Shown: positions 4,001-57,900, counted from the first letter of the stretch. The stretch is 64,000 nt of DNA from an uncultured Lentisphaerales bacterium (GCA_943788985.1 CALSSJ010000023.1:110984-174983); one strand, 5' to 3'. The notes: generated by a model from the sequence alone, not told the origin. Numbers and translations are program-made.

Positions 4001-4042
4001 GATCCCGGCGAGGCCTGGGAACAACTGGGAGAACGCCTCACA

Positions 4043-5429
4043 ATGAGGATGGAGAAAGATGCCCTCGGGCCAGTAGAAGTACCAGATGGCGCCTATTTTG
4101 GTGCGCAGACGCAGCGTGCCTGCGAGAACTTTCAGGTCGGAAACGAGCGCCTTCCGAGCGAGTTCATTCAGGCTCATGCCTTGGTCAAGAAAGCGGCAGC
4201 GATCGTCAATTGTGAGCTGGGTGGCCTAGATGCGGAGATCGCAACTGTCATTCAGGGCCCGCGGCTGATGAGGTGATCGCCGGGAAGTTCGACGCACACT
4301 TCCCGCTGGTGATCTGGCAGAGCGGCAGCGGCACGCAGTCGAACATGAATGTAAACGAAGTCATCGCGAACCGGGCGATTGAGATGATGGGCGGCACGAT
4401 CGGGACCAAGTCTCCGGTGCATCCAAACGACCATGTGAATATGTCACAGTCCACTAATGATACCGTCCCGACATCCATTCATGTGGCCGCGGTCACGGCG
4501 ATCGAGAACGACCTCCTTCCGGCGCTCAAGTCTCTCGCCGAAGTGTTCGAAGATAAGTCTGCGAAGTTCGCAGACATCGTCAAGATTGGGCGGACGCATC
4601 TGCAGGATGCGACGCCGTTGACTTTGGGCCAGGAGTTCTCTGGCTACGCAGCCCAATTGCGTGCTGCTGCCGGTGGTATCCAAGGCGTGCTGCCCCAGCT
4701 GCGTGAGCTGGCCGTGGGTGGCACTGCCGTCGGCACCGGTCTGAACACACGCACGGCCTACGCCACACGCATGGCAGAAGTCATCAGCGAGCTGAGTGGC
4801 CATGCCTTCGTCTCAGCCCCGAACAAATTCGCCGGGCTGGCTGCACATGATGCAGTCGTAGCCTGCTCAGGCTCGCTCAAAACGCTGGCCGCGGCAATGA
4901 TGAAGATCGCAAACGATTTGCGTTGGCTTGGCAGCGGTCCCCGTTGCGGCCTCGGCGAGCTACGCCTGCCCGCCAACGAGCCAGGCAGCTCAATCATGCC
5001 GGGCAAGGTCAATCCCACGCAGTGTGAAATGGTCACTCAGGTAGCCTGCCAGGTCATGGGCAACGATACCACCATTACGATCGCTGGTAGTCAGGGAAAC
5101 TTCGAACTGAACGTGTTCAAGCCACTGCTGGGCCCAACGCACTGCAGCAATCGATTCGGCTGCTTGCCACGGCCTGCGATTCTTTTGAGCGGCACTGCGT
5201 CTGCGGGATCGAGGCCGATCGCAATAAGATCCAGGAGCATCTGACCAATTCATTGATGCTGGTCACCGCACTCAACCGTCATATCGGCTATGACAAGGCT
5301 GCGGAGATTGCACTCAAAGCATGGCGAGAGGAGCTGACGCTCAAGCAAGCTGCGTTAGCGCTCGAGTACCTGACCGACGCGGAGTTCGCAGCATGGGTTC
5401 GCCCTGAAGAAATGGTTTCTCCTACCTGA
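4043..5429 (+). CDS. fumC: Class II fumarate hydratase, with apparent frameshifts near 4257 and 5131 (probable sequencing errors)
   Basis: [70 protein letters not shown] and [15 protein letters not shown]. The C-terminus [21 protein letters not shown]...[11 protein letters not shown] lies in another frame. Confidence 0.93.
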
Positions 5430-5450
5430 GAAACTGTATCGGAACCCTGA

Positions 5451-12985: not shown

Positions 12986-13032
12986 TAAAAACACCAACGA
13001 GCACCAATCCTCGCTGGGCGAAGATTGGTGCT
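12986..13032 (-). terminator. Probable intrinsic terminator after the giant gene
   Basis: On the minus strand AGCACCAATCTTCGC-CCA-GCGAGGATTGGTGCT forms a 15-bp stem with one G-U pair, followed by CGTTGGTGTTTTT. It lies about 30 bp past the stop at 13063. Confidence 0.6.
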
Positions 13033-25000: not shown

Positions 25001-28000
25001 TCTGCGAAGTTCTGTAGCTCCCACGCATCAGCAATGCGATCGTCATCGGAGTCTTCGGTGCCGAAGACCGGTACTGGTGCAGCGACCGGTTCTTCGACCA
25101 CGACTGCCAGGCCGTCACGGTCAAGGGCGTAGGCCCAATCGGAAGGCTGGGTGAAATCTTCGATGGTTGCGCCACCATCGTCGAAACGGAAGTAGACGAG
25201 CAAACCAGCGGCATCACCAGGTACGGGACCGTGGCGATTGGCTGCGATTTCGGCTGCCGTGCGCTGTGGGGACCAGACGCGGACTTCGTCCACGAGGTGG
25301 CCAACATCAGCGAAGCCGCTGTCGAGTACCAGTGTGCCGTTGTGCCCTGGGCCAGTGACGGCAGCTTGCGCCCCGTCGACCTGGGTGCCATTCAGATACA
25401 AGCGCAGCGTTGCGGAGTCCGCATCCCAGCTGGCAGCCAAGTGATTCCAACGGCCAGCAGCAAGCGTCGTCTCTAACGTGGCGGTTACGCCGAGTACAGA
25501 GGCAACCGGGCTCCCGTTGTCGAGACCAAAGGAGAACAGGTCATCCTGCGGTCCGAGCAAGGTCAGGATGTCACCGCTTGCGGAATCGTTGGCAGCGTAG
25601 AACCATGCTTCAACGGTCCAGCTGTCGAGGGCGAAACGACTACCTTCGGGCTGCGGAACAACCAAACCAGCGGACTGCAGTGCATAAACCCGCGAAACTG
25701 CTGGATCGAGGCTGACGAGAGGATTGATCTCGTTGCCATCGAGCAGACCGTTGTCATCGGTATCCGGATTGTTCGGATGGGTGCCACGCAGTTGCTCGTT
25801 GAGATTGGACAGGTTGTCGTTGTCTAGATCGCGACGATCATCACGGATGCCGTCGTTGTAGGTGATCTGGTCGGTCGGATCGGTTCCAGCGAGCCACTCG
25901 TAGTAGTCGCTGAGGCTATCGCCGTCGACATCCCCGGAGCCATCGCGGCCCAAGTTGCCGAAGAAGTGGAGTTCCCACCAGTCCGCCATGCCGTCGCCAT
26001 CGCTGTCAAGGTTGACTGCGACTGGATTGTCACCAGAGACGCCATCGTTCGAGCCAGCGAAGGTTGCTGCGTGATGCCAGCCAGACAACCAGTCATTCAC
26101 AGGCATTGCGAAGTCTTGGGCCGTAGTTCCGCTGTCATCGAAGCGATACAGGGCGACGAGAGCATCCGACCCGGTGTGGAATCCCTGACCGGTCAAGTCG
26201 CTTGTGGAGGCGCTACTCCAGATTGCGAGATCGTCCAGCTCGGCCGCCAAGCCTTCACCGACTGCCATGCTGCTCCAGCCAATCACGTCCGCGGCGGGGG
26301 CAATCCCGCTGGTGACGGTGTTTTGCAGCAAGCCATTGACCGTGATACTCAACTCGCCGCTCTCGGCGTCGTACTGAGCTGCTACGTGACTCCAACGTTC
26401 CGCAAGAATCGACGCCCCGGAGGTGGCGATCACGCTGGCGGAGCCGTGGTCTTCATAGCTGCCAGTAAAGCTGGCGTATGGCTGCAGGCTGCTGTTGATG
26501 CCCAGCTCATAGTTGACGGAACGAGCGTCGTCATCGTCATGCGCATCGGCGATGCGGCGCGATACGATGATACCACCATCGGTATCGCTGGTGCTCAGCT
26601 TGATCCAGGTCTCCACGGTCCAGCTTTCAGCAAGGTTGAAGCGGCTCTGGTTTGGTACTGCTAGAGTGGCGCCTTCGGTCGGCAAGGACAGGACGCGAGG
26701 CACATACGGTGACAGCGGCTGGATCGGACTGCTGGTCACAGCATTGGCGAACAGTTCTGCATTGTCTTCAGCGCCGTCGTCATCCGTATCAGCAGCGGCA
26801 TTCCACGGATCTGTGCTCTGGGCAGCCTCTTCGAGGTTGCTCAGGTCATCACTGTCAGGGTTACGCTGCGCATCGGAGGTGCCGTTGGTGGTCGCGTCGA
26901 TCGGGCTGGTACCGGAGCGCCATTCAGCAACTTCGTCCAGGCCGTCGCCATCTTCGTCGTTCTCTTCTGCTGCGGTCGGATTCAGGCCGTAAGCGTGTTC
27001 GAACCAAGTTGGCAGGTTGTCGCCATCGAGGTCGCCGTGAGTCGGGGCAAAGCTGCTGTTGACGACCGAGGCACCTGTCAGCGTGGCTGCGTGGCGGGTA
27101 TGACGCCCGCGCAGTGCCAAGGAGAAGTCCTCGGATTCGGTCAGGTCCTGCACGAAGGCAGAGCCAGCGATGGCTTCGTCAGCATTGAAGTAGGCGATCA
27201 GCCCGGTTGCTTCCACAGTCGCCAGCGCTTCGCCGAGGTTCAGCGTGGCACCCGTGAGAATGCGGCCGTCCAGGCTTGCCAGCGGCGTCGCCGTTTCGAG
27301 CAGGCGTGTCTTGATCTCGAGGAAGGTACGCTTTGGCTGCGCCGAGAGCAGCACAGCAGCAGCACCCGCGACATGTGGTGATGCCATCGAAGTGCCCTGC
27401 AGATTGTGGTAGCCACCGCCAAGGCGAGTGCTGTAGATCTCGACACCAGGAGCAGCGATGTCTACGGTGGTGATGCCATAGTTGCTGAAGCCTGCCATCT
27501 GGCCGTCACGGCTGATCGCTGCGACAGAGATGATGTTCTCTAGGTCGTAGCTTGCCGGGTAGGCTGGATTGGAGTCGTTGTTGCCGGCGTCGTTGCCAGC
27601 AGCAGCGACAAAGAGCTGGCCAACGGCCTGGGCGCGGGCGATCGAGTCGTAAAGGGCTTGCGAGAAACCGCCGCCGCCCCAGCTGTTGTTGGTGAGCGTG
27701 GCGCCCATCTGAACAGCATAGTCGATGGCCGCGATGGCATCTGCTGTGGTCCCAGAGCCATTGTCACCGAGGAAGCGGAGCGCCATAATGCGCACGTTCC
27801 AGGCTACCCCGACGACACCGACATTGTTGTCGCCCACGGCGCCAACGGTGCCAGAGACATGCGTCCCGTGCCCGTCCACATCCATCGGGTCCCCGTCGTC
27901 CTGGGCGAAGTCGTACCCGTAGACATCGTCGATGAAGCCATTGCCATCGTCGTCGATCCCGTTATCCGGGGTTTCGCCTTCGTTCTTCCACATGTTTGCG

Positions 28001-29943
28001 GCCAGATCAGGATGGGTGTAATCAACGCCGGTGTCAATGACCGCGACGATGACTTCGTGAGAACCAGTGTTTACGTCCCACGCTTCGGGTCCGTTGATAT
28101 CCGTGTGCTCGAAGCCCTCGGTGACATTGTTCATGCCCCACAACTTGGCGAAATCTGGGTCGTTCGGCGTCCGAATCGCGGAGACGATGTAATTCGGCTC
28201 TGCGTATTCGATGTCCGCGCGGCCTTGGAACTCGGCAAGGGTTGCTTCCAGGGATTCGCCGTCGGCAATCTGTACCAGCGTGTGACCGGTGTTGAAGCTC
28301 TTGAGCGTGGCTACGCCGACCGTGGCGTTGATCGCGGCATGATCCTTACTTGGCACGCCGTCTGCATAGCGGACGATGATCTCATCGGCAGTGTGCTCTT
28401 GCGCGAGCATTTCAGTGATGGAACGCGGTCCACGGCGCTCGGCGTCGAAACGCTCGATCTTGCCGGTGAAGCCTGGAACCGTGGAGCGGTACAGCGCGCC
28501 GACTTGCTCGGCGTCGCGTGCCTCGGACCAGACCCGGACTTCATCAATCGAACCCAGATAGTTGCCACCGATGGTGGTCTGGGCGCCGACGAAGGTCGTC
28601 CCAGCGACATCTTGGCCATTGCCGATTGTGACAGGTACATCACCAGCAGTCGTGCGGTCGATCCAAGCAACGGGCAGCCCGTCTACATAGAGGACCAGCA
28701 GGTAGGTTTCTTCGTCGAAGCTCGCGGCCAAGTGCGTCCAAGTCCCTGCCTCAATCGAGAGCAGGTTATCGAACGGTACCTCACCATTCTGGGCAGACTC
28801 ACCACCAACCTTCACATTGTGACCGTCGGTGCTGTCAAAGCGAACGTACGGACGAAGGACGCCAGCGGCATCCTCATCCAAACCGAGTGCGAAGTTCGCA
28901 ACGGGAGTGCCGTCCGCAACGCCCACAGCGCGGCGCAGCAGGAGACGATCGCCAGCGGAACCAGCCGATGCTGGGTTGGCCCAGACTTCGATGGTCCATG
29001 AGCTCATAGCCAGCTTCTGGCTATCAGGAACATTCACGACATCGGTGAGATTCAGGAAGTCCAAGCTGCCCAAGCGCGGTGGTGCGGTGTTGGCAAGTGG
29101 CGACAGCGGATCACCGGCCATGCTGACTGCATGCAGTTCGTCATAGTCGTTGATACCATCACCGTCAGTATCGGCGTTGCGTGGATCCGTACCATAGGTC
29201 TGCTCATCCAGGTTGGTGAGCATGTCGCCGTCCTCGTCGGCTCCTGCATCACGCCCATTGTTGAACTGATCGATCGGGTTGGTTCCGCCCAAGAATTCGC
29301 TGATATTGGTCAGGCCGTCTTCATCCTCGTCCTCTTCAGCGTCGTCCACGTCGTACAGACTTTCGAACCAGTCTGGCATGCCATCATCATCACTATCGAC
29401 GTAGCCGTAGAAGGCCTGCGCATTCGCAGGAGCATCCCGGCGGTCAACGATCCAGTCAAGCGTGCCATCGGCGTCTGTGTCCGTCACATCGTCGATCCCG
29501 TCGCCATCCAAATCGGCAGAGATTGCGTCGTCCCAGTCGCCTAGGCCGTGGTCGTCATCATCCGCAAAGTTCTGGATGCTGCTACCGCCATCATCAAAGC
29601 GGAAGTGGCGCCAGAGGTCGTCCCTGTCAGAGACAGCAAATTCGTGAAGGTCCCGCGCGATCTGTTCCGCCTCAAGGTCGCGGTGCCAGATACGGAGTTC
29701 GTCCAGAAGCGCGCCAGTCCACGTACTGTCGCCCAAGGTGACTTCACCAAAGCCGGTCACTGCCTGTTCATCGTCTGCTAGATCACGCACTGCGTGTGAC
29801 GTGCCATTCAGGTACATAGCCACGCGGTCTTCATCAGCAACGACGGCCACATGGGTCCAGCCATTGAGCGGCAGGCTTGCCTCGAGAGTCACGGTATTGC
29901 CATTGACGGTATCGAAGGTCACATAAGGAACGTTGGCCTGCAA
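13063..29943 (-). CDS. C-terminal segment of the giant LamG/TSP3-repeat surface protein: S8 peptidase, Ig-like modules, PPC-like domain and C-terminal GWNL domain
   Basis: 5626-aa ORF with repeated WTVE.W...WxHxA...LYVNG...G.IDEVRIW modules and DSDGDGLPD.WE repeats, plus one subtilisin triad. It begins mid-domain, so it is a frameshift fragment. Confidence 0.9.
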   Translation of the reverse strand: MQANVPYVTFDTVNGNTVTLEASLPLNGWTHVAVVADEDRVAMYLNGTSHAVRDLADDEQAVTGFGEVTLGDSTWTGALLDELRIWHRDLEAEQIARDLHEFAVSDRDDLWRHFRFDDGGSSIQNFADDDDHGLGDWDDAISADLDGDGIDDVTDTDADGTLDWIVDRRDAPANAQAFYGYVDSDDDGMPDWFESLYDVDDAEEDEDEDGLTNISEFLGGTNPIDQFNNGRDAGADEDGDMLTNLDEQTYGTDPRNADTDGDGINDYDELHAVSMAGDPLSPLANTAPPRLGSLDFLNLTDVVNVPDSQKLAMSSWTIEVWANPASAGSAGDRLLLRRAVGVADGTPVANFALGLDEDAAGVLRPYVRFDSTDGHNVKVGGESAQNGEVPFDNLLSIEAGTWTHLAASFDEETYLLVLYVDGLPVAWIDRTTAGDVPVTIGNGQDVAGTTFVGAQTTIGGNYLGSIDEVRVWSEARDAEQVGALYRSTVPGFTGKIERFDAERRGPRSITEMLAQEHTADEIIVRYADGVPSKDHAAINATVGVATLKSFNTGHTLVQIADGESLEATLAEFQGRADIEYAEPNYIVSAIRTPNDPDFAKLWGMNNVTEGFEHTDINGPEAWDVNTGSHEVIVAVIDTGVDYTHPDLAANMWKNEGETPDNGIDDDGNGFIDDVYGYDFAQDDGDPMDVDGHGTHVSGTVGAVGDNNVGVVGVAWNVRIMALRFLGDNGSGTTADAIAAIDYAVQMGATLTNNSWGGGGFSQALYDSIARAQAVGQLFVAAAGNDAGNNDSNPAYPASYDLENIISVAAISRDGQMAGFSNYGITTVDIAAPGVEIYSTRLGGGYHNLQGTSMASPHVAGAAAVLLSAQPKRTFLEIKTRLLETATPLASLDGRILTGATLNLGEALATVEATGLIAYFNADEAIAGSAFVQDLTESEDFSLALRGRHTRHAATLTGASVVNSSFAPTHGDLDGDNLPTWFEHAYGLNPTAAEENDEDGDGLDEVAEWRSGTSPIDATTNGTSDAQRNPDSDDLSNLEEAAQSTDPWNAAADTDDDGAEDNAELFANAVTSSPIQPLSPYVPRVLSLPTEGATLAVPNQSRFNLAESWTVETWIKLSTSDTDGGIIVSRRIADAHDDDDARSVNYELGINSSLQPYASFTGSYEDHGSASVIATSGASILAERWSHVAAQYDAESGELSITVNGLLQNTVTSGIAPAADVIGWSSMAVGEGLAAELDDLAIWSSASTSDLTGQGFHTGSDALVALYRFDDSGTTAQDFAMPVNDWLSGWHHAATFAGSNDGVSGDNPVAVNLDSDGDGMADWWELHFFGNLGRDGSGDVDGDSLSDYYEWLAGTDPTDQITYNDGIRDDRRDLDNDNLSNLNEQLRGTHPNNPDTDDNGLLDGNEINPLVSLDPAVSRVYALQSAGLVVPQPEGSRFALDSWTVEAWFYAANDSASGDILTLLGPQDDLFSFGLDNGSPVASVLGVTATLETTLAAGRWNHLAASWDADSATLRLYLNGTQVDGAQAAVTGPGHNGTLVLDSGFADVGHLVDEVRVWSPQRTAAEIAANRHGPVPGDAAGLLVYFRFDDGGATIEDFTQPSDWAYALDRDGLAVVVEEPVAAPVPVFGTEDSDDDRIADAWELQNFADLTTAEAAPTSGTFNEDAYVDGYTDTDADGLNDLYEFLAGTDPLEGDTNLNGTPDTHEDSDWDGLVNLIEQLRGTHPLLIDTDDDFTDVADENGVFDGVISQIDDNGPAGVADGQINWWDGYEPGNDYEEAQNQADAGNESDPADSTKRVRDFVMSFNGSGKLWLQPQDRHALTEWTVEAWVQPTELRDGVILSRSFPVQVTNGLAEGTNYEIGLRDVNGSLHAYVAYRYRRAFQANQSYIQTIELLSDDPVALGTWSHISGSYSASGQMLTLTVHDYESGEEISDESTTAVNLPPTSGPGETYVELGANFKGAIDDVAIWSAAVESSYDTALTGDESDLVALFSFNDGGTTVEDYSVARDWETNWMHAARMATGAAFSAGTPSVRADEDDDGLPDWWEREVFGDLSGEADGDEDEDGLTNFYEYLAGTSPTNEDTDGDGLDDDLENADGDTLTNFQEQQVHSDPRNEDTDDDGVNDDVEAAQFTSPAHSMSQVPRSAANRSGYVARALDLSSISFTGTTLPHAERFDSLADSWTAEYWIQLDGDTTGVVLGAQVAGSVVLEIGVNAGQPYAQYVTTTNQTVRIGDDYFTAFGTGEWHHVAVAYDSDLQTIALYVDGLLWKAQSNALPIEVPVDEDAMVYLGGNGNASSNFSSGLLDEVRVWNIARTAGQVEAMRDHLVLEGDEDLQAYYRFDDGGSTIEDFRRPLRADRIGQSYTITGTVVEIDTAALSFGGRRMPVALRTVFDDADLDQVPDWYGVVQVANDPSTATRPDGERESGDESAQTDDDPADNQPLLPSYSWAGHVSLPDANVDGILDLDADADSDGLANGDELILATLPLVADTDDDGVSDGDEELGGNDPRNQFSPVQELALSVDGSSYATLPLTSRLALPAWTIEAWIYPTAASDGTVLQRTVGGNSYRLSVNAGGQLSITFDARDGSGPVTVMSVVTATAQLDEWTHVAATFDPAENVVSLILNGVDSTTTNTLKKPVLNGPGPVFTRMGEGFIGFIDEVRIWSIVRNQTTIQAQMVETLSGTEAGLVAYYRFDDGGETAADAVAQADWLSEWANAAVLANGATMTEPAEAVPTPAVPVDTDDDEIPDSWELAYFGNLTSVGLDENGPQGYTDFDSDSLNDFYEYLAELDPKRFDSDGNGTPDREEDRDLAIIRAGTAGSPNAGFLVANNGLAVWTDSIANGVYDTGEEQQLGDGLTNLEEQVLGLHPLLKDTDDDGIGDNDEVNAISTTLTSDAANSLDPGVRRVGTFDGDDYLVAYDNETIGLETFMITLWVKPDLNGSHTILEKHARGDNNDVLNYALRLLPDGTVIFEYHNQLINRLVTLESRDTIGAGEWAMIAATLDIANNNMQLDLFVPTGPDTFDQRTNSRLPISTPVIETGHLYVGVDYNGVTQSAVGSTHYSGQMDDITIWEDILTAAQLQEIYLLAREGNSFGAFEIFDTISTTIVDDAGAVTGTQVETIVVDTIEPVLFYSFNDGGQFVEDFAHPRDWLNVSSVDGYNWRYAARVVGNTFAGEGQLDNDGDGLPNWFEMLYSENRIFGLGQIGQIDVDLNPNNADTDNDGIRDGAEDIDRDGLTNMEEYLGRDSTIPQIGIGVYDDVSSEWVYDEVVADAIRPTNPQIGVWYYVEASASGTEINIGNEWQGQIGMLAKFDGTWSFVEPVATPNDTPTTGDHYVTTINITGPITDRRYENTDGTIPTVADTDGDSLLDGAELNTYGSDPLLVDSDDDGLDDETEIAQGDSPTSSLDPLVRRSLRLGAGGYMQAIGQARHELDSFTVEAWVYPDAANADGVVVRKVSGRVDRRDLTFANNDPLADTITTAGGDFITAGMAAGMTITVEGSLSNNGSYEIAEVTPTVLTLAGGETLANEAPSNSRVQLVADAVNYELGLRAGFPYVSYTPDNLGENQEIVGTDLAELGEWTHIAGTLDPDAGRLILYVNGRSQSVNFTGFKPYQKPGDLYIGAASGGFEGLIDEVRVWSVARSTAQINGLKDSTLAATEDGLSSYFRMDDGEYGTSNPPYEHKFGAEDHAIPNDFTVAALGRGDYAFDTVVPDLSDMDSDNDGMPDFWENANGLDPFDATGDNGATGDPDNDGLLNLQEYDADTNPQHRDTDADGMDDGFEVLFSLLPKADDAFDDADGDGLNNISEFLGADNQAAFAGSTGAILISSSDRSLWGDATDPTSADSDGDAMGDKAEVENDLDPNDASGDNGADGDPDADDLTNIRELQLGTKPTVADTDGDSLKDGWEVANSFDPLNNDTDGDGTLDGEEDTDNDALDNAGEQNRGTEPRNPDTDGDLLPDGWEVISTNSSAVSLDPLDATGIHGTDGDPDEDGRTNRLEYLAGTDPWVADNFDVDTDNDDVADTDEIQQNTDRQLPDTDDDGIADIVEHNDAELGFLSDPLNSLKYKGVQNLVLNLDGATFLDVPLVNIGQSDANVAVEDDPDAQRLGYESWTVEAWVRPQLDLTLHADPDRRMVIIQRSLSLNGDADVISYELGIDTDERPYVLWSTPTVVRKVKAGTPIQSADENFVWTHILGTFNAANNSMFLYVNGVEVARNINAFGSAKPKDLDKLAVIRIGASVDVDDVSDSISTHNFVGDLDEVRIWGDVRTEAEIKEAYNRDVEIVLGNLDTFRSGLVPQESVYDPGIDSQLSTDGLWETTAGTQGLLLAQARYFDANLNQTRDAHEGLWIDQNGNNVYDEPVLVEGETEETVIDTVILPGSHDPTVTVDENAAVVLIPDFTVASDDGTLIQDAPGSLAALYFGDTNSNATWEATEDMWDDYVTLQDAFFPGVNDWATPLNLGLYLKFDDGPMVLTVADQAAEDAVATTYIGAIYRSDEAAYKVDIDPTSGRNWVVNPVTPTIQDFVWHADWLPYERLLSQSLVDTDRWVHALQLTTATNARATLVQANDEPNVMNLIVDIDPQSPGVDSVLTAHPRGAFDPNGDMFSYEYQWYIDDAGCVDTTCMEPIADATARHWTVQAGSRSYRVSVRAVDEDGGASTWVWSEAVTVDAAQSSPTVAEYVVSQADLDEDERAEHYIGTLTTEPTDADGDQVHVFTRWIKNQGIAITDWSLMLVDLSYGHAQLRVGDVVKLEAYVTDEVDGNNTATGRRSAPSYSNSFVHGGGVGTNSRPEPPAIAIEPAQPRAEDDDIRCVLTLPAVDPDGDVVSYFFEWYGFNRVTNTYQQLERRSRTTTEGVIETGGRKEIGFPGFVDTSVTGTELDDLLSGTGTDVLAPDDGDILEGSIILTAGQAQVEFAIDSNIISTMLATENHRLEGVLVYCEVQAVDTFGNRSEPARSQTVTVFPGFGLPGSNEDDEGGGGGGGGEGTSSLVIDAETYEPNDTPQEARRILVNGFDVFNSSTDQENGSGGGGGGGDENSGDQSGGFSTVEESGNTNESNNNSGSDTENTEEEGNSLSLEGTFEGQAHSFFLEDEDWMKFTVLQTSEVEVATGRTVDEIEQRIRNPARDTGTRLDLGVDTRMWLYSEGDFERAIIFNDDYRSFAHPEFNLAARFKVVVDPGTYYIRVAPHHQFGTLASEYGILVLANPVPGVFVSSPAQPVLRPTNAQVTDDLFADVDPATVLSGHQLFYRWYVDGVQVMVTEDRVLDHRFTQAGQEWAVSVFARNPAGEVSADSPLSVEVEIEQQAWLATLRVDKRFGDGSEAPTQTVGIGWLAGASHGWDENLDVDLPTSLNIPAFFGNVNGPTPLPDGTSVPSGSFFSAGFTEGHSALSLDMRPFGDAATWYLYLDFGDQPTEVRIEWDPILLPRSDLPLTWVEVDPDSDFAPIPGTELDMLAERRVGIDISGNTERTTRVFRVMIAQSSRTVSLTLDAGWNLISFPITPNDPDPDLVFANNTGRIISGAAWTFLNGSYIAATEIRAGEGYWVLNPRDIAATIVVGGYHAPLTIVLKEGWNLIGPTRDMAVPDGIDPSKVSEYSRGSYRPLDLTDPLPLKAGKGYWVNSDQERVIHFE
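14330..14970 (-). other. PPC-like (pre-peptidase C-terminal) domain interrupted by a Gly/Ser/Asn/Glu low-complexity tract
   Basis: YEPNDT..EA ... DEDW.KF ... VDT.M.LY ... NDD ... PGTYYIRV pattern. Confidence 0.6.
27225..28430 (-). other. Subtilisin S8 domain 3 with pro-domain
   Basis: IEYAEPNY, PNDPDF..LWGM, VIDTGVDY (about 28034), GHGTHVSG (about 27869), AAAGN and GTSMASPHVAG (about 27389). Confidence 0.92.
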
Positions 29944-32900
29944 GCCAAGCTCGTACTCGGTGGCGCCATTATGTGCACCTTAGTCAGCACTGCGCCGGTC
30001 TGGCTGGCAGCCGAGCCGACTGAAATCCAGAACTCAACGGTCCATTCTCCCGTGCGATCAACGTAGTCCTCTCCGACCTGCGGAATCCGCACACCATCCA
30101 CCACGGCGAGATCGAAGGCACGATCGCGTTGCGGGCTGAGTGAGTGCTTGGCGCTGGATGCCGGAGCCATCCGAATATCAGATGAGACGCTAAAGCCATA
30201 GACGCCATTGCTGGCAGCGGTGAGCACGGTGAGCGGTGTATCGGCACCGTGGTCGTAGTGCGGGCTGTCATTACGATCGATCCAAGCATGCTCGTTGCTG
30301 TCGATCATGCCGTCGCCGTTTGCATCGCCGAAGCGGACGTTCGCCAGGCCAAGGGTCGTGTGCGCTGGGGTCGGCGCATCACCAACCAGCAGGATGTCCG
30401 TCCCATCGGTGTAGACGCCATCGCGATCAATGTCTACCCAGACCGAACGGCCTACGAGATAGCCAGCGCTATGGCCATCGTCGTCTAGAGGGTCAATGGA
30501 AAGCAGCGCATGCGTGTGCTGCTCGATCAGGTCCGTGATGCCGTCGTTGTCGCTGTCGGCATCCCCCGGATGCAGCTCGAGTTCCTGCTCTTGACCGTTG
30601 GTAAGGCCATCGCCGTCTGCATCCTCGTGGGCATCTGCAATGCCATCGAGATCGCTGTCCAGCTGCGTCGGGATCGTACCAGCCAACCACTCGTAGTAGT
30701 TGCTCAGGCCGTCGCCGTCTGCGTCGTCATCCCCATCGGCTTCCAAATCACCGAAGTGGACGAGTTCCCAGCTGTCTGGGAGGCCGTCGTCGTCTGCGTC
30801 AAGCTCACGCTCTTCGACAGGAATGGAAGGAGACATCGTGCCCACGGTTGCGGTGCCATGGAGACGACCGGCGTGCAGCCAGTTCTGCTTCCAATCCATC
30901 GCAAGATCAGCAACATGATCTTCGATGGTCTCGCCGCCATCGTCAAACAGGTACTGTAGAACCAGGCCATTGGCGTCGGCTTCGATCTGGCGATGCATGG
31001 CGGCTCTCATGCCACCGGCAAAGCGCGTGTGTTCCCAAATCCGCACGTTATCAATTGCGCCGCTAAAGCCCTCACCGACGCGGACCCAAGTGGGACCGTA
31101 GCCGTTCTGATGAACTGGGAGATCGGCGACAAGGTCAATCACACGGATGCCATTGACATAGATCGCGAGATTGTTCCCGTCAAAGGTCGCAGCAACATGG
31201 GTCCACACAGATTGCGGTACGGACTCGGCTGCGCTCACGACAAAATCGGCATCGCCGGTTGCGGGGCTGACCGCAACCGTGGGCCGCCCACCATCCAAGT
31301 AGAAATGGTAGTTGTAGAGGCCTTCAGTTACCTGACGGCCGAGAATCGTACCGCTATTCGCTGTCGGGTAGATCCACGCTTCGATGGTAAACTGCTCAAG
31401 CGCCAGACGGTTCGATTCCCATGGCGCCTGCACGTAGCCGCTGCCGTCGAGCAGTAGCGCGTTGGCCTGGACAGGATCGAAGGCAAAGGCTGGGGCTGTG
31501 CCCTGTACGACTTCTGCACCATCCTCAGTCCCATCATCGTCAGTATCGACCAGGCGCGGATCGGTGCCATGGAACTGCTCAACACCATTGTCGAGGTCAT
31601 CGCCATCGCGGTCCTCAAAGGCATCGATGATGGTGTTGCCATCAGTGTCAGAAACGAGAGGGCTCGTGCTGCTGAGGAATTCATACAGGTTGGTCAGACC
31701 GTCGGAATCGAGGTCCTTGGTCGGATCCATGGTCAGGTCCCCGAAGCGCAGCTCGTACCAATCCTCAATCCCATCGTGGTCGCTGTCCGGTGCGCCGTTC
31801 AGCAACGGTGATGGATTGGTGGTCGAGAGCGCGTCAAGGTGGCCGTCGGTAAGGCCAGTGGCGCCAACGATCGAATCCCAGACCGCGTTGGTGCCCAAGT
31901 CAACCTGGGTATCACCGGCGTCATAGAGGCCGTCCTCGTTCACGTCCACAAACGTTTCGTCCTCGTCGTCCAAGTACAGATTGCCATTTACGTCGATGTA
32001 CAGAATGCGCGCGCTGGCGGCATTCTCGATGCGGATATCGAGGCCAGTCAGGTCGGACTCCAAGACATCGGTCGCGTAGTCATCGACAGTTTCGCCACCG
32101 TCATCGAACATGTAGTAAAGAACCATAGCGCCAAAGAGCTCATCGGTGGCTGGAATGGCACGGAAGCGTTGAGCGTCGATCACTTTGTCGCTCAGCGCAG
32201 CGCGCCAGACCCGCACTTCGTCGATCGCCACACCCGTCAACGTGGTGCTGTTGTGTGGACCGTTTAGATGGGCAACACCACCAGGCGTAATATTCAATCC
32301 AGTGATGGACTTGCCGACGCTGACGCCGTTCACATTAATGCGAATCTCGTTTGTCACCCCATTGAAGGTGAAGGCCAGATGGTTCCAGCTGTCACCAGCA
32401 AGCGCATGTTCCATCTCGAGAGTCTCATGGACGCCCGGAGCCAGCATAGTCTGGAAGTACGGCCGATTCTCGTTCAGGCCGACGCTGTAGGCGACAAGCC
32501 CAGACAGATTTGCGTACTGGAACAAGGCACCGGACTGCAGAGCAGCAGTTGGCCGGACCCACATTTCAATGGTGAAGCCCTCGAGGGTGTTGGTACGGCG
32601 CACGAGCTCGGTGCCACTGCCGGATACAGCGCGTCCAGGTGGGTTCATTGCACCGCTCGGCCAGCTGATGTCGGTCACATGCCACCAGGCTTCTTCGTTG
32701 GTGCCATTGCCATCGGTAACGCTCATGGTCGTCGGGCCAAACTCGACTAGCCGCTCGTCCGGCTGACCTTCGTGGACCAGCACGCGAATGGTGCTCTGCG
32801 GATCGCCACCGTTGCTGTAGTTGTTGCTCCAGACCTGATAAACGCCATCTTCAGCAGAGCCGGAAAACACGGTAATGTTCTCAGGGCCAGTGCCGCTAAT

Positions 32901-48900: not shown

Positions 48901-51900
48901 AATGCGGAGAGTCCCTAGGCCACTGACTGGTGATACTGTGGCAAAGCCAAAGTCATCACCAATGCGGCTCACAACCTGCGCGTCGACATACAGGTGAAGC
49001 TCCTGTGCGGGGCCATTCCAGGTGGCGACAACTGTGTGCCAGGCGTCGTCACCGATCTGCTGCTCACAGGCCAGTGCCACCATGGTGCCACGCTGCAGGT
49101 CCGTAAAGCGGATCCGTGGGCGACCGTTGATGACTTCGATCGCAAACTGCGTACCATCCACACTGTTATATGAGACCAGCTCGCCAGTTGCTTGCGTGTC
49201 GAGCTTAGCCGACACTTCGACGGTCCAAGCATCACCAAGGGTTGCCAGGCTGGCGTGGCCGTTGAACGCGACCTCTCCAGCTGCCAGACTCAAGCTGCGC
49301 TGTGGCAGTGCGGCATTGGCAGTTCCAACAGCCTGATGCATCGCATGCAAGGGGCTGGTAGGCGGCACACTGTTGACTTCGGTGCCGTCATTCACGCCGT
49401 CGTCGTCGGTATCCGCAACATGCGGCAACGTCGCGTGAATCTCCTCATCGCCGTTCGCCAACCCGTCGTTGTCAAAGTCTTCCAGGGCGTCCCGCAGACC
49501 GTCAAAATTACTGTCGCGCTCATTCGGGTTGTTTCCGGTCAGGAACTCGCCCAGGTTGGTGAGGCCGTCATTGTCAGCGTCGCCGGCGGCATCGTCAACC
49601 AGTGGGTTCAGGCCGTTATCGGTTTCCCAGCTGTCGGGCATCCCGTCACCGTCAGAATCGGGCGCGCGAACGGTCTCGTCGAGTACGATTGCTGCACCAT
49701 TGCGCAGAATACCAGCAGCGCTCCAGTTAGTTAGCCAGTCCTGAGCAACTGTGAAGTCCTCAACGCTGGCTTCCGCGAGGGAGCTGCCATCGTCAGCACG
49801 CATGGACAGCACCAGGCCAGCCGAGCTGTCCGCCACGTCGACGGCGGCAAGCTGGTCGATTGGACGAGCGACATTCCAGATGCGGACATCGTCAATCTGA
49901 CCCGCAAACATCTGCGCACCAGCACCACTAGGAATACCACCAATGGTCACCTGGCCAGCGAGCCCTTGGCTCAGATCCGGACCAGCCGTCACATTGGTCC
50001 GCTCAGCGACAAGCAGACCGTTCACATAGAGAGTCATGGACTCGTTGGCCGGGTCAATCACGGCGGACAAATGCGACCACTGATTGGCGGTCACCAGGCC
50101 ATCGGTCAAAGCGTGCCAGGTGTGGAAAATTCCCAGTGCGGGAATATCCAGCTGGGTGCCGCCTACCTTGTATTCTTTGAGCGTACCGTTTGGCTGCTGA
50201 ACCTGGTATTGAGCGTACGGGGCCAGACTGCTGGACAACGGCTCGAGGCCAAACTCGAAGTTGCTAATCCCATTGCCAATAAGATTGCGGGCCAGAATGG
50301 CACCGTCAAGTTCAACCCCAGGCTTGATCCACATCTCAATGGTCCAAGTGGATAGCAAGTGCCGTGGCTGACGCGGAATAGCGAGATAGTCGTCGCTTCC
50401 GTCGAACCACAGCGAACGGCTGATAGCTGGGCTCAGTGAGTCAGCCGGATTGGTGGCTGCGCCGCCTGGATCAGCTGTGGTGATCACACCATAGATATCG
50501 TTGACGCCAAAGATTTCCTCGGCATCGCTGAGACCATCATCATCCGTATCGATTGATGCGGGTGAGGTTCCTGCAGTTTGCTCTTCCAGAACGGTCAGTC
50601 CATCACTGTCGATATCGCGATCACCATCGTCAAGACCAAGGTTCTCGGTGCGGACACGAGTTGGATCCAAGGCCGCCAGATATTCGTAAAGGTTGGTGAC
50701 TGAATCGCCATCCTGGTCGCCTGAACCGTCTTGGCTGAGATCGCCCAAAAAGGCGAGTTCCCACCAGTCAGGGAGCTGATCGTTATCGGTGTCAAAGGTG
50801 ATTGCGTCTGCAATTGGGGCGCCTGGCTCATCAATCAGGCCACCTTCCCGAATGGGGGACGAAGGCCAGCCAGTAGCCCACTCGCTGGCAGCGGAAGCCG
50901 CGAAGTTCTGAATCAGGAGACCTTCGTCGTCAAAACGATAGTAGGCTGCCAGGCCCGTGGTGGGCACAACAGGGTAGTCAACGGAGGTGCCAGCAAACGG
51001 ATCCACGCTAACTGCTTGCGTCCAGATTCGGACATCGTCCACGCGACCGTTGAGGTCGCCGCCAATGACCTGGGTAATCTGCAGGCTTGCGTCACGCGAT
51101 GGCGGAACGCTCATGGTCTCGCGCCACTCCTCGGTGCCATTGACGTACAGAATCATCGCGTTCAATGCGGGATCGTACACCGCAGCGACATGGAACCAAG
51201 TTTCTGTGATCAGCTGGCGAAAGGCCCAGGTCGTCTGGAGGACGCCCTCTTCGGTGACATACTCAGCGTACAGACGCGAGCTACGAATGCCCATTGCGTA
51301 ATGCGGGGCACCGCCGGAGCTCCGTGCGAACAGCGTCGCGTCCGTTTCACCGGCGTCTAAGCGTACCCACATTTCAATCGACCAGCCATTGCTTGGTTCA
51401 AACGCACTGCTTGGCTCGATGATGACTTGTTGGCCATCGGTCAGAGCGAGTGCGCGATTCACGTGCGGGTCGAGTGAGTTGGTCGGGTTCGGATCATTGC
51501 CGTCATCCAGACCGTCTTCGTCTGTATCGGCGGCATACCCCAGCGTGCCAGCGGTCTGCTCTTCGAGCACGGTCAGCCCATCACTGTCGGGATCTTCGTC
51601 GCCGTCAGCCGTCCCATTGCCGTCGGTATCTGTGAGAGTTGGATTCAGGCCGCTCTGATATTCGTAGAGGGCGGTAATTCCGTCGTTGTCTTCATCGCTA
51701 GTCGAGATGGTGCTGTCTGGGTAGAAGGCCTCGAACCAGTCTGGCAGACCGTTGCCATCGCTGTCGAGCACATGCTCGCCACCAAGAATGCCGTTGCCAA
51801 GTTCATGGTTCGTAAGGTTCATCCCCTGGCCATGAAGCGGAGCAGCTGAGCCCACGTGAGTGACACCCGCCGTGGCAAAGACGTAGTCTAGCGGTGAGTA

Positions 51901-54900
51901 GGAAACCGTCGGTGGGACGATGACCGGCGCCGTCGAAACGGCAGCGATCGCGTCAATATCCGCGCCTGGAACATTGGCCCCGCCTCGGCTTTCACCTGGA
52001 TCGGTCAGGCGCAAGTAGCTAAACTGCGCATCGGACGCCACGAAGGGATCAATATCTACCCCGGAGGTGGCCCCGCTAGTGGAGCCTACAGCCACCCAAG
52101 TCTCACCATCTGCACTGATTTCGACCATGACAGGTTCCACCAGACGGCCGACTTCGAAAACCCAAATATCGACACCGCTGGTCCCGTCGGGGACGAGCAC
52201 ATTGTCAACAAACTGAACCGTCAGACTCCCGCCAATGCCGAGCGACACGGCACCGCGGGCACGGCCAGAATCCAAGAGCTCCGGCGAGCCAAGGGCCTGC
52301 GACGTGTCCGTCTGGGTGTTGGTGCCCGGACTGCCATTCTCGTAGGCAACCACGGCGTCTGCGAAGGAAATGTTCCCGTTTGGAAGAGTCACGCCATCAA
52401 TAACGACTGATGCCGAAACATCGACCACTGTCGAGCCAAGTTCACGACTAGCAAAGGGCGTTGCCGCTGCGCCACGTTGTGGCCAGGCATGGTCTTCTAC
52501 CGTGCCGCCGCCATCATCGAACCGATAATGGGCAAGCAGCTCAGTGAGTCCACCAAGGCCCTGCTCGTTGGTCAGAGCAGCAAGGCTCTTATTCGCATCG
52601 ATCTGCGCAGGAGTGAGGGCGGTCAGCCAGACGCGCACTTCATCTACGCGAGCCGTCATGCCCACACTGCCGAGATAGGCCGCGTGCTCGAACTCGTTGG
52701 CCGTTGGATCAGAGACCGGACGCACGCCGCTGAGGGAAATGTCATTCACATCTGACTCAGTGACATAGTCGCTCACACTGACGCCGTCAACGACCAGAGT
52801 GAGGTTCGGAGTGGCTGCGTTCCAACTAGCTGCAATGTGTGTCCAGCGATCGACCGGTAGCGCGAAGGCACCGTCAACGCGGAAGACGCGCGGCTCTGCG
52901 AGGTTATCCTCGAACAGGACATACGGCGTGCCGCCGTCCAAACCGAGTTCCATCTGGCGAACATGATGCACCGTATGTTGGAACAAGGCACCAGTCTGCC
53001 CAGGAGCCTGAGGATCAACCCACATTTCGATGGTCCAGCTGCCCCCCTGACGGTCGAACCGTGCGGGCATGGGAAGAGTCACGCGGCCTGACAGGCCAAG
53101 GTCCAAGTGACGCGAGCGAATGCGCTTGTCATCGTCAACCGGATCCCAGCCGGAATCGCTGTAAGCAGGGTGCGAGCCCTGGGCAACTTCGTCGCCATCC
53201 GTGATTCCGTCGTCATCGGAGTCGGCTGAATCCCGACGAGTGCCGTAGAAATCTTCCTCAGCGCCGGTCAGCCCGTCACCATCCTGGTCGTAACGCGGCA
53301 GGTCCGCTTCGGCATGGAGCACGCGCCATTCCGGCGCAGTGACGACCGGGATACCAGCGTGACGCCAGCCTTCGGCATTATCGTTCGGGTGCAGGTCGCT
53401 GGCTGCGGTAGTACCACCGTCCTTCAACGCAAAACGGCGGATGGCACTGCCACCGGCGGTGCCATCAAGGTAGGCAGCATAGGCGTCGCTGTCGGTGACA
53501 CCGCTACCGATGCTCAGTTCGATGATTTGACCGGTGAAGCCTTCACCAGCACGCAGGGTGATCGGACCAGGTCCGCTAGTAGCGGCAAGGTCGGCGGGGA
53601 CTGCCAGATCATTCGTAGCCTCAACCCGGCCATTGCGATACAGAGTGAGGGTGGTGCCATCAAATGCGGCACCAATTTGCGTCCATGTGTTTACCGCCAC
53701 AGGGGTCAAGGAGTAGAACTGCTGCACGCTTCCAGTGGTTTCACCAGTATAGCCGACATACGGATGCCCGGTTGCGGTCAAGCCGAGCACAAAGGTCGCG
53801 CGGCCCCCACCAATGGAGCGGTGCAGGATGGTGCTCTCCGCGAGAGTCGTCGGATTGATCCAAGCAGATATGGCAAAGGTCCCGTTGGCCAGCTCCAAGC
53901 TATCTGGAATGGAGAGGTAGTCGGCCGCTGCTAGTTGCAGGGCACCCGCCGGGTACTCCTGGCTGCTGGCGTCAGCCGGATTGGTTGGCGCAGTCGGATC
54001 TGCAGGAAACTGAGTGTCCAGTTCGGCTGCGTCATCGGCTGGGGTAGTCGTGAGATTGGCAATGCTATTGTCATCGTCATTGTTCAGCAACCACGGGTAG
54101 AGGCCGGCCGTCTGCTTGTCGAGATTGGTCATATTCGTGCCTTGCCCTGGGTAGGCTTGCACCGGAAGAGCATCTTCGTTGGCATCGTTGGTGCCGTTGC
54201 CATCGGTATCAGACTCGGTCGGGTTGGTATTAGCGAAGTACTCCCAGCGGGCAGTCAGTAGATCACCATCCGCATCGCTGTTGCCGTCCATCTCTCCGTA
54301 GAGGTCTTCGAACCAATCCGGGAGACCATCACTATCAGAGTCGTGACCACTGGTCACGCCTTGGCCATAGATTGCTACGCCCGGTGCGGTCATCGAACCA
54401 GCAGGCAGTGCGATAGCCATGGATTCATCGGTCGTCGCAGTTGCGGACTGCGCAGACTCGCCAGCGTCGTCAAAATGATACGCCGCCACTAGGCCTGCTT
54501 CGCCTACAGGTAGCAGATACGCCCGGTTCGCGGCAATTTCTGCTTGGTTGCGGGCTACTGACCAGCTGCGAATCGCGTCCAAGCGACCATCGGCCAAATC
54601 GCGGCCAAAGACGAGTGCGCCATTGCCACTGCCAATCACGAGCGGCTCATCACCAAAATCGTCTTCGCTAAAGACCAGTCCGTCGACGTAAGCAGTGAGC
54701 ACGCGATTCGCGCTGTCCCAAACCACGGCGATCGCATGCCAGTCGCTGTCGTTGATCACTGCCCCTGCGAGGGTGTGGTCATTGTACATGACGTCAGTTA
54801 CCGTCACCTGCAGAGCGCCTGCACTGAGGTCGATCTTGTATTGAAAGCCGCCGCCAAAGTCATAGGCAACCAGCTCACCGGTCTTGTCTGCACCCAACTG

Positions 54901-57900
54901 GGCGTAGAACTCAATGGTCCAGTCTCCGCCACCAGCGTTGTGTGCCGCGCCATTAGGCAGAATCACTGGTCCGGAAACACTCAGGTCCAGGCTACGCTCA
55001 ACCTGAGCACGCCCAGCATCCAAGGCATCAGCCAATTGGCTGGAGGCGTAGCGCGGATTCGTGCCAGCGTTGATTTCTGTAGAATCGTCGATGCCGTCGT
55101 CATCCGTGTCAGCCAGATCCGGCCGTGTCCCGTGCAACTGCTCTTCTTTGTTGAGCAGGGCGTCACCGTCGGAGTTCAGGCGACCATCCAAAATAGCGGG
55201 GTTAATGGACGCATTATTGTTTGGATTGGTGCCAGCCCAAAATTCGTAGAGATTATTAAGGTCATCCGCATCAGGGTCTGCTGTCGCATCGGCCGCATCC
55301 GCTGGATCAAGTCCGTTGGCCACTTCCCACCAATTGGGCATGCCGTCACCATCGGTATCGCTGTCGGTAAGCTCGCTGCCAGCCTCATTGGCAAAGTTTG
55401 CAGCACCAACCAGAGTTCCTGCGGTTTGCCAGCCGTTGAACCAAGGCGTGCTATCGCTCAGCAGGCCGTTCTGGGCGCTGATGCCACCATCGTTAAAGCT
55501 GAAGTTTGCGAGCAAGGCCGGATCGGCCTCGTCAACCGTTGCAGCGCCAGCCTGTGCCATTTCGGCATCGCGAACACTCGTCCAGACGCGGAGGTCATCC
55601 ATCTGGCCGGTGACGCCTTCACCGGCGATCACAGTCACAGCACCGGGGGCTTCGGTCAGTAATGCAGCGGCTGTGGTCGTGGCAACCAAGTCACCGTTGA
55701 TGTACAGATTCAGGGTGCCGGTAGCCTCATCGTACGTGGCGCCAAGGTGCGACCAAGCGTGTGGTGCCAGAGCACGACGACCAGGAACGGGCAGAACCAC
55801 TGCGCTACCATCCAACTGGGTGACGGAGACAACTGGGGACCAGCCATTCAAAGACAACGCGACGTTCGCACGCCCAGCGCCGAGGCGACGGGCAAAAATG
55901 ATGCCGTTGACAGCGTCAGGTCGGACCATTGCTTCCACCGTGAAGCTGCTCAGAGCGGTGACAGTCGCGGGTGCAATCGCCAAGTAGCCGGTGGCGGTCG
56001 GTAAAGCGAGTGCGCGAGCATGTTGCGGTGTGGATGCGTCGGTGGCAGAGGTGCCAGCGGCGACTTCGACATCATCATTGTAGCCGTCGTCGTCGGTATC
56101 GATCGCGTCTGGATGGGTGCCCAGGGTCTGTTCCTCAAGATTGGTCAGCGCATCTGTGTCTGCGCTTTCATCGGCATCTGAGAGGCCATCGTAATCAGTA
56201 TCGGCCCGATTGGGATCGGTTCCAGCGAGATATTCATACCAGTTATTCAGACCATCGGAGTCTGCGTCCGTCAGCGCATCCGCGGCGCTGGTCCAATCCA
56301 GGCCGTGCTGGCGTTCCCAGAGATCGGGCATTCCATCGCCGTCATTATCTTGCAACAGCACACCAGTGACATCAGCAAAGGCGACACTACCATGAAGGGT
56401 CGCTGCATTCTCCCAGCCATTCAACCAGTCGCGAGCCACGGTGAAATCTTCGGCTTGGCCTTGCTGTGAGCCAGCTTCGCCATTCACAATATCTCCAGAT
56501 CCCCAAACGCCGTCGGCCCCTGGATTCTGCGAAGTGCCGTCATCAGCGCGCAGATAGGCAACCAAGCCGCGGGCTGGTGCAACCAAGGCATTGCCAACAT
56601 TGAGACGACCGCCAGTGACCATGCGACCATCCAAGGCAGAAACGGCATCGGTGCTGTCCAGCAGCGTCGCCTTCACATCTTCCCAAGTCGCATTTGGATT
56701 TCCGGCGTGAATCAGGGCTGCGGCTCCGGCAACATGCGGTGTCGCCATTGAGGTACCGCTCAGCGTGCCGTAGGTGTTACCCGCCTGCGTACTGAGAATG
56801 GCCACACCCGGCGCAGCAAGATCAACCGTCGTCAGGCCCCAGTTACTAAAGCCTGCAAGGGCATCGCTGGAATTGGTCGCAGCCACTGAAATAATGTTGT
56901 CCAGATCATAGGAGGCTGGATAGGCTGGATTGGCGTCATTATCACTGCCGTCGTTGCCTGCGGCAGCGACAAACAACTGGCCGGCATCGCCAGCGGCTGC
57001 GATCGCATCGACCATAGCCTGCGAGAAGCCACCACCACCCCAGCTGTTACACGTGAGTGTCGCCCCCTGGGCCGTCGCATAGTTTATCGCGGAGATGGCG
57101 TCGCTGAGCAAACCACTGCCATTGGCACCGAGAAAGCGCAGGGCCATCAGCTGGACATTCCAGCTCACGCCAGTTACGCCGACGCCATTGTCACCAACGG
57201 CACCGACCGTACCAGCGACATGGGTCCCGTGATGGACGCCTACGTCTTCGGATACGGGATCATTGTCATTGTCGACCCAATCCCAACCATAAACGTCGTC
57301 TACCAGGCCGTTGCCATCATCGTCTATCCCATTTCCAGGTGTTTCCCCTGGGTTGGTCCACATGTTTGCGGCCAGGTCTTCATGATTATAGTCCACGCCA
57401 GTGTCAATAATGCCGACAATCACGTCGCGTGAGCCGGTGTTTTGGTCCCAGATCTCGGGCCCGTCAATATCGGCATCATCAATGCCACCGGTCTGGCCCG
57501 TATTATGCAGGCCCCAGAGCTCGTCGAAGCGTGGGTCGTTCGGGAATGCAGATGCCGTGAGGATGTAGTTCGGCTCGACATAGCGGACGCCCGGCGTGCC
57601 AGCCAGAGCCGTCATCTTGGCTGCCATATCGTCGCCGTTGGCGACCTCCACCAAGTTGGCGTTAATCGACTCGTGGCGTGAGAGTTTGGTCAGACCAGCG
57701 CTCGCGAGGATCGCTTCACGGGTCTGGGCATCCATGCCGCTGGCGAAGCCGATGTGCAGTTGCTGGGCCTCGTGTGGATGGGCCAGTTGCTGCTCAACGC
57801 TCGCCGCCGGCACTGAGACCTGATCGTCAAGACCGAATTGAAAACCGTTCTGGATTTGCGCTGCGCTAAGGGCAGTACCCCAGATGCGAACGTCGTCAAT

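Follow-up and report, generated by a model that had tools for sequence, protein, structure and literature searches.

The question raised by this locus is whether a giant protein that carries its own proteases is cut by them into separate parts or stays together after it has been cut. The locus lies in a stretch of 64,000 nucleotides from an uncultured Lentisphaerales bacterium (GCA_943788985.1, CALSSJ010000023.1:110984-174983), the whole of which was analyzed and is called the window here; positions are counted from its first letter. The minus strand of the window holds a gene for an array of LamG domains that alternate with TSP3-like blocks, and within this array lie three subtilisin-like proteases of family S8, each preceded by a pro-domain. 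The original prediction took these enzymes to be the processing machinery of a polyprotein that cuts itself into large protease-headed subunits. We find that each pro-protease cassette is inserted in a loop of one LamG/pentraxin domain, between the core and the completing strands of that domain. The arrangement that we consider rather probable is a giant LamG/TSP3 scaffold in which the three nested pro-subtilases cut themselves in cis while the split LamG domains hold the chain pieces, leaving a nicked, probably exported scaffold with tethered proteases.

The three cassettes, each about 415 residues in size, have all their motifs in a single reading frame of the minus strand. The motif that ends the pro-domain, Y[AV]EPNY, is found at 57582, 43764, and 28206, and the catalytic Asp (D), the catalytic His (H), the oxyanion Asn of AAAGN (N), and the Ser of GTSMA (S) are placed at the positions given below. 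Pfam matches Peptidase_S8 to cassettes 1–3 with expect values (E) of 1.6e-57, 5.5e-55, and 3.2e-62 and Fervidolysin_NPro-like (PF22148) with 8e-11, 2.9e-11, and 9.2e-7; because all of these matches are above the curated Pfam cut-offs, they are not due to chance. The complete triads and the separate pro-domains recognized in the original prediction are thereby borne out. Judged by its sequence, each cassette is an S8A subtilase zymogen, with its triad in D[ST]G, HGT, and GTSM motifs, an oxyanion Asn, and an I9-like pro-domain directly before the enzyme. The cassettes, their hosts, and one further insert are laid out as follows.

57840..58422, minus strand: host LamG domain 1, N-terminal part (the core, which ends in a DDVRIW motif at 57897, plus a helix)
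57550..57774, minus strand: pro-domain 1 (PF22148); predicted scissile bond YILTAS/AFPNDP, P1' at 57549
56569..57549, minus strand: S8A catalytic domain 1; D 57405, H 57231, N 56955, S 56751
56350..56568, minus strand: putative completing strands of host LamG domain 1 (GLVAYLRADD ...), placed by their likeness to the homologous segments of cassettes 2 and 3
47203..47754, minus strand: VWA domain (PF00092), inserted in the LamG loop that also takes the proteases; the same insert occurs in G051
44026..44634, minus strand: host LamG domain 2, N-terminal part (Pfam, structure model)
43732..43953, minus strand: pro-domain 2; predicted scissile bond YVISIN/RQANDP, P1' at 43731
42760..43731, minus strand: S8A catalytic domain 2; D 43587, H 43422, N 43146, S 42942; nearest solved relative deseasin MCP-01 (3VV3)
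42618..42759, minus strand: strands that complete host LamG domain 2 and that, by prediction, pair with its N-terminal part
28492..29076, minus strand: host LamG domain 3, N-terminal part (Pfam, structure model)
28174..28395, minus strand: pro-domain 3; predicted scissile bond YIVSAI/RTPNDP, P1' at 28173
27205..28173, minus strand: S8A catalytic domain 3; D 28035, H 27870, N 27594, S 27390
27050..27204, minus strand: completing strands of host LamG domain 3, from spacing and structure model

Cassettes 1 and 2 lie within a duplicated block of about 1,800 residues (offset about 4,600, 38–58% identity); trees do not settle where cassette 3 came from.

The three cassettes are encoded by one gene, in one reading frame after indel correction, so that the single chain assumed earlier is supported. 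The gene and the two errors that interrupt it in the assembly are these.

13063..63999, minus strand: giant gene, at least 16,977 residues, in which LamG domains (PF13385) and TSP3-like DxDxDG blocks take turns
33971..33971, no strand: assembly frameshift 1; in each of 4/4 public runs a contig is 1 base shorter here
29976..29977, no strand: assembly frameshift 2; in each of 4/4 public runs a contig is 2 bases shorter here

As assembled, the gene is divided into three minus-strand open reading frames (ORFs; 63999-33910, 33974-29919, and 29979-13063, of 10,029, 1,351, and 5,638 codons), and both frame breaks fall in the middle of a LamG domain. Among the indels listed, those that restore the frame at 33971 (-1 base) and 29976 (-2 bases) are found in contigs from all four public runs, which come from four studies. 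A second contig of run X4, with three differences from the window's own allele, is also one base shorter over 33662-34016, and the region 44001-64000 of the window shows no indels against public contigs. The fumC gene (about 4000-5450, plus strand) is broken over three frames by two frameshifts, most likely assembly indels, and because it is broken twice in the same window, indel errors appear to be a property of this assembly. The corrected frame comprises 16,978 codons including the stop, with 109 DxDxDG motifs in the TSP3-like blocks. Its 5' end is lost at the contig end, past which one public contig extends for 5.4 kb.

The points of cleavage can be placed from relatives of known structure. 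Several solved mature chains begin two residues before PND, and 3VV3 begins three before it, by sequence alignment; these starts give predicted P1' residues at 57549, 43731, and 28173, within two codons of the sites near 57545, 43725, and 28170 proposed originally. Arg302 of the cassette 3 model (P1', 28173) coincides in space with the first residue of the mature forms of thermitase and deseasin, and the cassette 2 model aligns with unautoprocessed pro-subtilisin E (3WHI) over residues 230–621 (Z 42.8, root-mean-square deviation (rmsd) 2.5, 339 aligned). The mature start follows PNY at a distance of 10 residues in 20 of the 21 cassettes aligned, and in database cassettes the junction is of this length in 38 of 52 (six are longer and eight were unparsed). 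As expected of a self-cleaved pro-peptide, P4 is hydrophobic and P2 mostly small. On these models and alignments, cleavage in cis at all three sites is likely.

What follows the enzyme determines what such a cut would do. Each LamG domain of the giant chain consists of a core that ends in a DEVRIW-like motif and then a completing segment, LVAY-x-FDD. The core-end motif and the LVAY-x-FDD strand are 27–38 residues apart in 15 of the 22 motif hits; at the three proteases this distance rises to 447, 445, and 451, and at the VWA domain to 236; the remaining values are 65, 204, and a spurious 211. The near-constant pattern at the three proteases indicates that the cassettes were inserted at one fixed LamG site. 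Arrays begin with a core that has no completing segment before it in all six relatives that retain an N-terminus, and they end with a completing segment in seven of the eight relatives whose array end is available; the last core of the window is likewise followed by one. The median gap from core to completing segment is 13 residues, versus 184.5 from completing segment to the next core. From the last protease strand to the completing strand the spacing is 14–17 in 20 of 21 rows, a short and fixed spacer, in contrast to the longer and variable link between pro-domain and host.

Structure prediction, which had been suggested for the cassettes, was carried out with AlphaFold for cassette 2 (predicted local distance difference test (pLDDT) 78.1, predicted template modeling score (pTM) 0.61) and cassette 3 (pLDDT 78.0, pTM 0.53). 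In both models the pro-S8 unit is nested in a LamG sandwich, and both align from first to last residue, with the protease skipped, to whole solved LamG/pentraxin domains. Against the LamG domain of PAPP-A (8HGG), cassette 2 gives Z 20.8 (rmsd 2.6, 201 aligned, model range 2–672) and cassette 3 gives Z 21.0 (rmsd 2.9, 200 aligned, range 1–675). Cassette 2 also aligns to PTX3 (Z 19.7, rmsd 3.4, 195/215, range 1–671) and to Limulus pentraxin (Z 19.6, rmsd 2.7, 196/217, range 1–672). The models thus contain a complete jelly-roll sandwich, with 179–202 residues aligned to the PAPP-A, PTX3, and Limulus pentraxin domains at Z 18.4–21.0. When residues 1–208 and 624–672 of cassette 2 were presented as two chains, the complex score was 0.85, versus 0.01 for the best of three controls, and strand 627–631 was predicted to pair with 187–191, with about 100 confident contacts, contact agreement of at least 93% between runs, and a partner pLDDT of at least 64. 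As a rough calibration, made with our own alignment, this mark was reached by 116/157 solved complexes and 2/215 mismatched pairs. Because spacing, array ends, the two AlphaFold models, and the complex prediction agree, the strands after the protease are predicted to rejoin the LamG sandwich begun before the pro-domain and to pair with its strands there.

The cassette is not confined to this genome. It was matched at E 1e-95 or better in 27 of 351 genomes of the class, this one included, with three candidates per genome scored; at least 17 other genomes match it over almost its full length and 2 more over part of it, and the matching ORFs measure 1,132–17,083 residues. Three copies are special to this genome: the giant ORFs read from 10 relatives, several of them truncated, carry one S8 domain each. 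The residues D, H, N, and S are invariant in 23/23 aligned rows. Among 95 further database proteins, some of which may duplicate the genomes above, 52 have a LamG-flanked cassette, one each; all 52 keep the triad motifs, and the completing strand is detected in 43. The source names of cassette relatives point to Lentisphaerae, Kiritimatiellae, and Verrucomicrobia. Used as a query for related loci, the LamG/pro-domain junction gave six weak matches, to unrelated LamG loci. At least nine studies of marine metagenomes contain near-identical DNA, and five runs from five studies were compared as DNA.

Nor are several internal pro-subtilases per chain rare in databases, since two or three S8 domains are present in 114 of the 120 longer proteins that scored best (the unannotated P0001-P0030 are examples), and a pro-domain is present for 115 of their 125 later S8 domains. 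These hits were sought in a length range of 1,200–3,400 residues and ranked by summed score, which favors multi-copy proteins, and the sequences are related rather than independent events. When host models were built from intact S8-free copies only (11 immunoglobulin (Ig) and 4 SdrD-B), 47 of 129 later cassettes had flanks that mapped to complementary halves of the Ig or SdrD-B model, against 0 of 129 with flanks shifted by 150 residues. These proteins are like the one studied here in having two or three pro-S8 units per chain, with the internal copies mostly nested in split host domains. They differ in their hosts, which are Ig-type (ASH/BACON-like) or SdrD-B rather than LamG, and in chain length, 1,200–3,400 residues; the ASH/BACON and SdrD-B labels come from our own motif reading and precomputed Pfam lists. 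A first host-domain classifier, by which 85 of 125 were nested, was discarded as circular because its seeds came from the flanks (the denominators 125 and 129 differ by thresholds), and PPC was dropped as a host domain when no intact S8-free copy of it was found.

In the mechanism that we favor, the chain would first be exported by a Sec signal; signal-peptide-like N-termini are present in six relatives, and the N-terminus of the protein itself lies outside the window. Each pro-domain would then chaperone its own enzyme and be cut off in cis. The upstream piece would end in one half of the LamG domain followed by the pro-domain; at the head of the downstream piece would be the enzyme and the completing strands of the same LamG domain. 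Because each cut would fall inside a LamG domain that is completed only after the protease, the sandwich is predicted to keep both products clamped, and the scaffold would be nicked, not split. The pro-domain, tethered through its LamG half, would probably act as a local inhibitor beside the active site until displaced or degraded. The deseasin-like enzymes, the marine source, and the binding-type domains suggest that such a scaffold could bind and digest protein-rich marine particles; for prey degradation, which was also proposed originally, we found no supporting evidence here.

Several observations weigh against this mechanism. The cassette 3 model lacks the precursor-like docking of the pro-domain, and 3WHI aligns only over 305–619; in the cassette 2 model, the junction region 302–338 has a pLDDT below 50. 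Ile is less typical than Ala in the S2 pocket, yet P2 is Ile in cassette 2 and Ala in the other two. The complex score may reflect likeness to solved LamG folds, and so it supports a geometry rather than an affinity; moreover, homologous completing segments would also pass the same test, so that it does not establish the strand register. The array of one relative (G076) ends in a core with no detected completing segment, and in 9 of the 52 database cassettes no completing strand was detected. Among the multi-S8 proteins, inspection by eye adds 22 of 125 later cassettes that look split but also about 18 that lie between domains. Passengers that are not zymogens, VWA and others, use the same LamG loop, so that insertion there could have come about without selection for stapling. 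Finally, even if the cuts in cis left the scaffold together, the active proteases could later cut other linkers.

The last point leads to the original idea of a self-processing polyprotein, in which cuts in cis, perhaps with further cuts in linkers, would free large protease-headed subunits (about 4,606, 5,184, and 5,036 residues, plus an N-terminal piece). We regard this outcome as unlikely. The enzymes are intact and their junctions conserved, tandem pro-S8 chains without a host domain do exist in databases, and autocleavage by S8 domains of giant proteins has already been proposed (bioRxiv 10.1101/2023.11.21.568195). However, each cut here would fall within a loop, and the two halves of the domain to which that loop belongs should, by prediction, remain paired, on which array ends and fold searches agree. 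What stands of the proposal, then, is that the chain has its own processing protease within one ORF and that cleavage in cis is likely; what does not stand is the separation into protease-headed subunits, because the predicted cuts lie inside the LamG loop. As modeled, free subunits are a less likely outcome than a nicked scaffold. The opposite possibility, that the cassettes remain uncleaved or permanently latent, with pro-domains that serve folding only and an activation that is rare or left to another protease, seems very improbable. A tethered pro-domain cannot diffuse away, it is undocked in one of our two models, and CspB keeps its pro-domain bound (PMC3567191); against this, the catalytic residues are invariant, the junction length is so often fixed at 10 (20/21 and 38/52), and the P4 and P2 residues suit self-cleavage.

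A nicked scaffold might also have a mechanical role, in that pulling or shear on a particle-bound chain would unzip the nicked LamG domain, strip the pro-domain, and shed an activated protease-headed segment, like GAIN, SEA, and MAIN domains. The geometry is that of nick and hold, with pro-domain and enzyme ending on opposite chain pieces, and shear release has been proposed for bacterial MAIN domains (bioRxiv 10.64898/2026.05.12.724683). Nevertheless, we think this quite doubtful for the protein at hand, which has no clear transmembrane helix as an anchor in the window's part and a C-terminal domain without known function, and a domain held by strand complementation may be so stable that it does not open. 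Least credible, and close to negligible, is that the three ORFs are separate genes or a decaying pseudogene, so that the third protease is off the chain. The assembly does contain the two frameshifts, and a minority allele with a real frameshift is possible beyond the indels listed. But both breaks are in mid-LamG, four of four runs restore the frame, fumC is broken likewise, and relatives have unbroken ORFs of 10,182–17,083 residues.

Returning to the nicked scaffold, one can imagine the stapled zymogen as a general design of surface proteins, in which load unzips the host domain, pulls off the pro-domain, and sheds an active protease. This would be a force-activated fuse, present three times in one 17,000-residue chain, and we offer it as a speculation that is improbable on current evidence. 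Hosts of such a layout are LamG here and Ig and SdrD-B folds elsewhere, and a matrixin occupies the same LamG loop in this genome. That matrixin (M10; PF00413, E 2.3e-39; motif HEFGHSLGLGH; L089:14401-15501) is on contig C16, with about 190 residues ahead of it that contain a lone Cys, and a LamG-loop matrixin was found in 1 of the 351 genomes. Among other layouts, a 4,250-residue protein (L024/L081, G012:C48:23926-36675) has two pro-S8 cassettes, each apparently within a split Ig-like domain. The database proteins P0009-P0011, of about 1,475 residues, consist of three tandem pro-S8 units with short linkers and no host domain; they would be better candidates for a true self-cutting polyprotein. 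In the 17,083-residue relative, about 15 LamG modules have no detected completing segment (L063-L067, G076:C1:1538101-1589349).

Contig C16 also bears on the missing 5' end. It carries a heavily frameshifted gene with a signal-peptide-like start and LamG/TSP3 modules at the end of the contig (L089:3361-16547; G000:C16:41361-54547, plus strand). Among contig ends, only those of C16 and C23 show LamG/TSP3 repeats, and the C16 gene probably supplies the missing 5' portion, with about 4,300 more codons; between the two contigs there is no overlap to prove the join. At the other end, the protein terminates in a domain that is shared with relatives.

13063..13500, minus strand: C-terminal twin GWN[LMI] domain

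This domain also ends most of the relatives' giant proteins and is present in other large ORFs of this genome, and NCBIfam names no family for the C-terminal region. It may be a lineage-specific sorting signal, for export or anchoring. In the window's part of the protein no clear transmembrane helix was detected (best 19-residue hydropathy 1.62). Right after the stop of the giant gene, at 13000-13032 on the minus strand, a terminator-like hairpin of 15 pairs precedes pyruvate kinase. Two copies of an Ig-like plus unnamed domain (TW-D-x-x-G-D-L-D motif) are inserted near LamG domain starts (62500-63150 and 32570-33350, minus strand), and at 33660-33990 and 31530-31582 dozens of substitutions relative to most public contigs mark divergent alleles within the gene. 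RNA-library contigs (two runs of one study) span 30/30 bins of 44001-64000, but these contigs are strandless and come without a silent control, so that transcription is unproven.

It is an open question whether giant bacterial proteins work whole or cut up, and cleavage points are unknown, according to the West-Roberts preprint (bioRxiv 10.1101/2023.11.21.568195). The giant gene offers three cut sites predicted to the residue and a reason why a cut chain may stay whole, and because single cassettes, about 670 residues long, are amenable to expression, the question is open to testing. Should the staple hold, it would explain the internal pro-subtilases inside split Ig-type domains of many unrelated secreted proteins, and an internal protease with its pro-domain would, alone, be no sign of a polyprotein. 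The spread of the family across the class, together with near-identical DNA in marine metagenomes, suggests that the system may matter for the breakdown of particulate protein.

How the system relates to known ones can be seen from its parts. The nearest solved catalytic domain is that of deseasin MCP-01 from Pseudoalteromonas sp. SM9913 (3VV3; E 2e-115), which aligns with model 2 at Z 44.6 (rmsd 2.2, 300 aligned, 58% identity) and model 3 at Z 50.5 (rmsd 1.8, 322 aligned, 52% identity). MCP-01 itself is secreted as a free enzyme and carries P and PKD domains at its C-terminus (PMC11294657). Here, by contrast, the enzyme is internal, nested in LamG, and in three copies and is followed by LamG completing strands and TSP3 blocks, not by P-proprotein and PKD domains. 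The giants of Omnitrophota (Archaeovorin and dockerin types) are likewise encoded by giant ORFs; their S8 or C39 domains have been proposed to cleave the precursor, and one class is rich in TSP3. But in the account of that preprint (bioRxiv 10.1101/2023.11.21.568195), the S8 domain is N-terminal and many transmembrane helices and SecA-like and glycosyltransferase domains are described; the word "LamG" occurs 0 times in its main text. Of these traits (transmembrane helices, SecA-like, C39, glycosyltransferase, dockerin), none was found in the window's part of the giant protein, which was covered by 34 Pfam pieces and, for the helices, by 19-residue hydropathy. The main text of a 2026 Omnitrophota preprint contains neither "cleav" nor "subtil". 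The nested layout of a pro-subtilase staple was not found in the literature searched, which was covered at title and abstract level and mostly without subscription journals; supplements of the Omnitrophota and MAIN preprints could hold such proteins.

Two groups of self-cleaving proteins offer mechanistic parallels. Nick-and-hold cleavage is known from GAIN, SEA, and SEAL domains (for SEAL, PMC10556640), and MAIN domains cut themselves at an HXS motif in a beta-turn of their own fold (bioRxiv 10.64898/2026.05.12.724683). In these accounts, all four are cut by themselves inside a beta-structure, keep their halves non-covalently joined, and occur in surface proteins with adhesion domains, and the cassette is predicted to work in the same way. 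It is no member of these families, because a LamG/pentraxin host would supply the clamp, the nucleophile is the subtilase Ser, and the cut would also mature a protease. The fused subtilases CspBA/CspB are alike in their position-dependent autoprocessing, which is set by the length rather than the sequence of the pro-domain, in the retained pro-domain, and in the involvement of a jelly-roll (PMC3567191). There the nesting is reversed, with the jelly-roll inside the protease rather than the pro-protease inside the jelly-roll, and CspB is split from CspA by another protease. Thus the parts are known and self-cleavage by S8 domains is already a published idea; what appears to be new, in the literature searched, is the nested and, by prediction, self-nicking arrangement.

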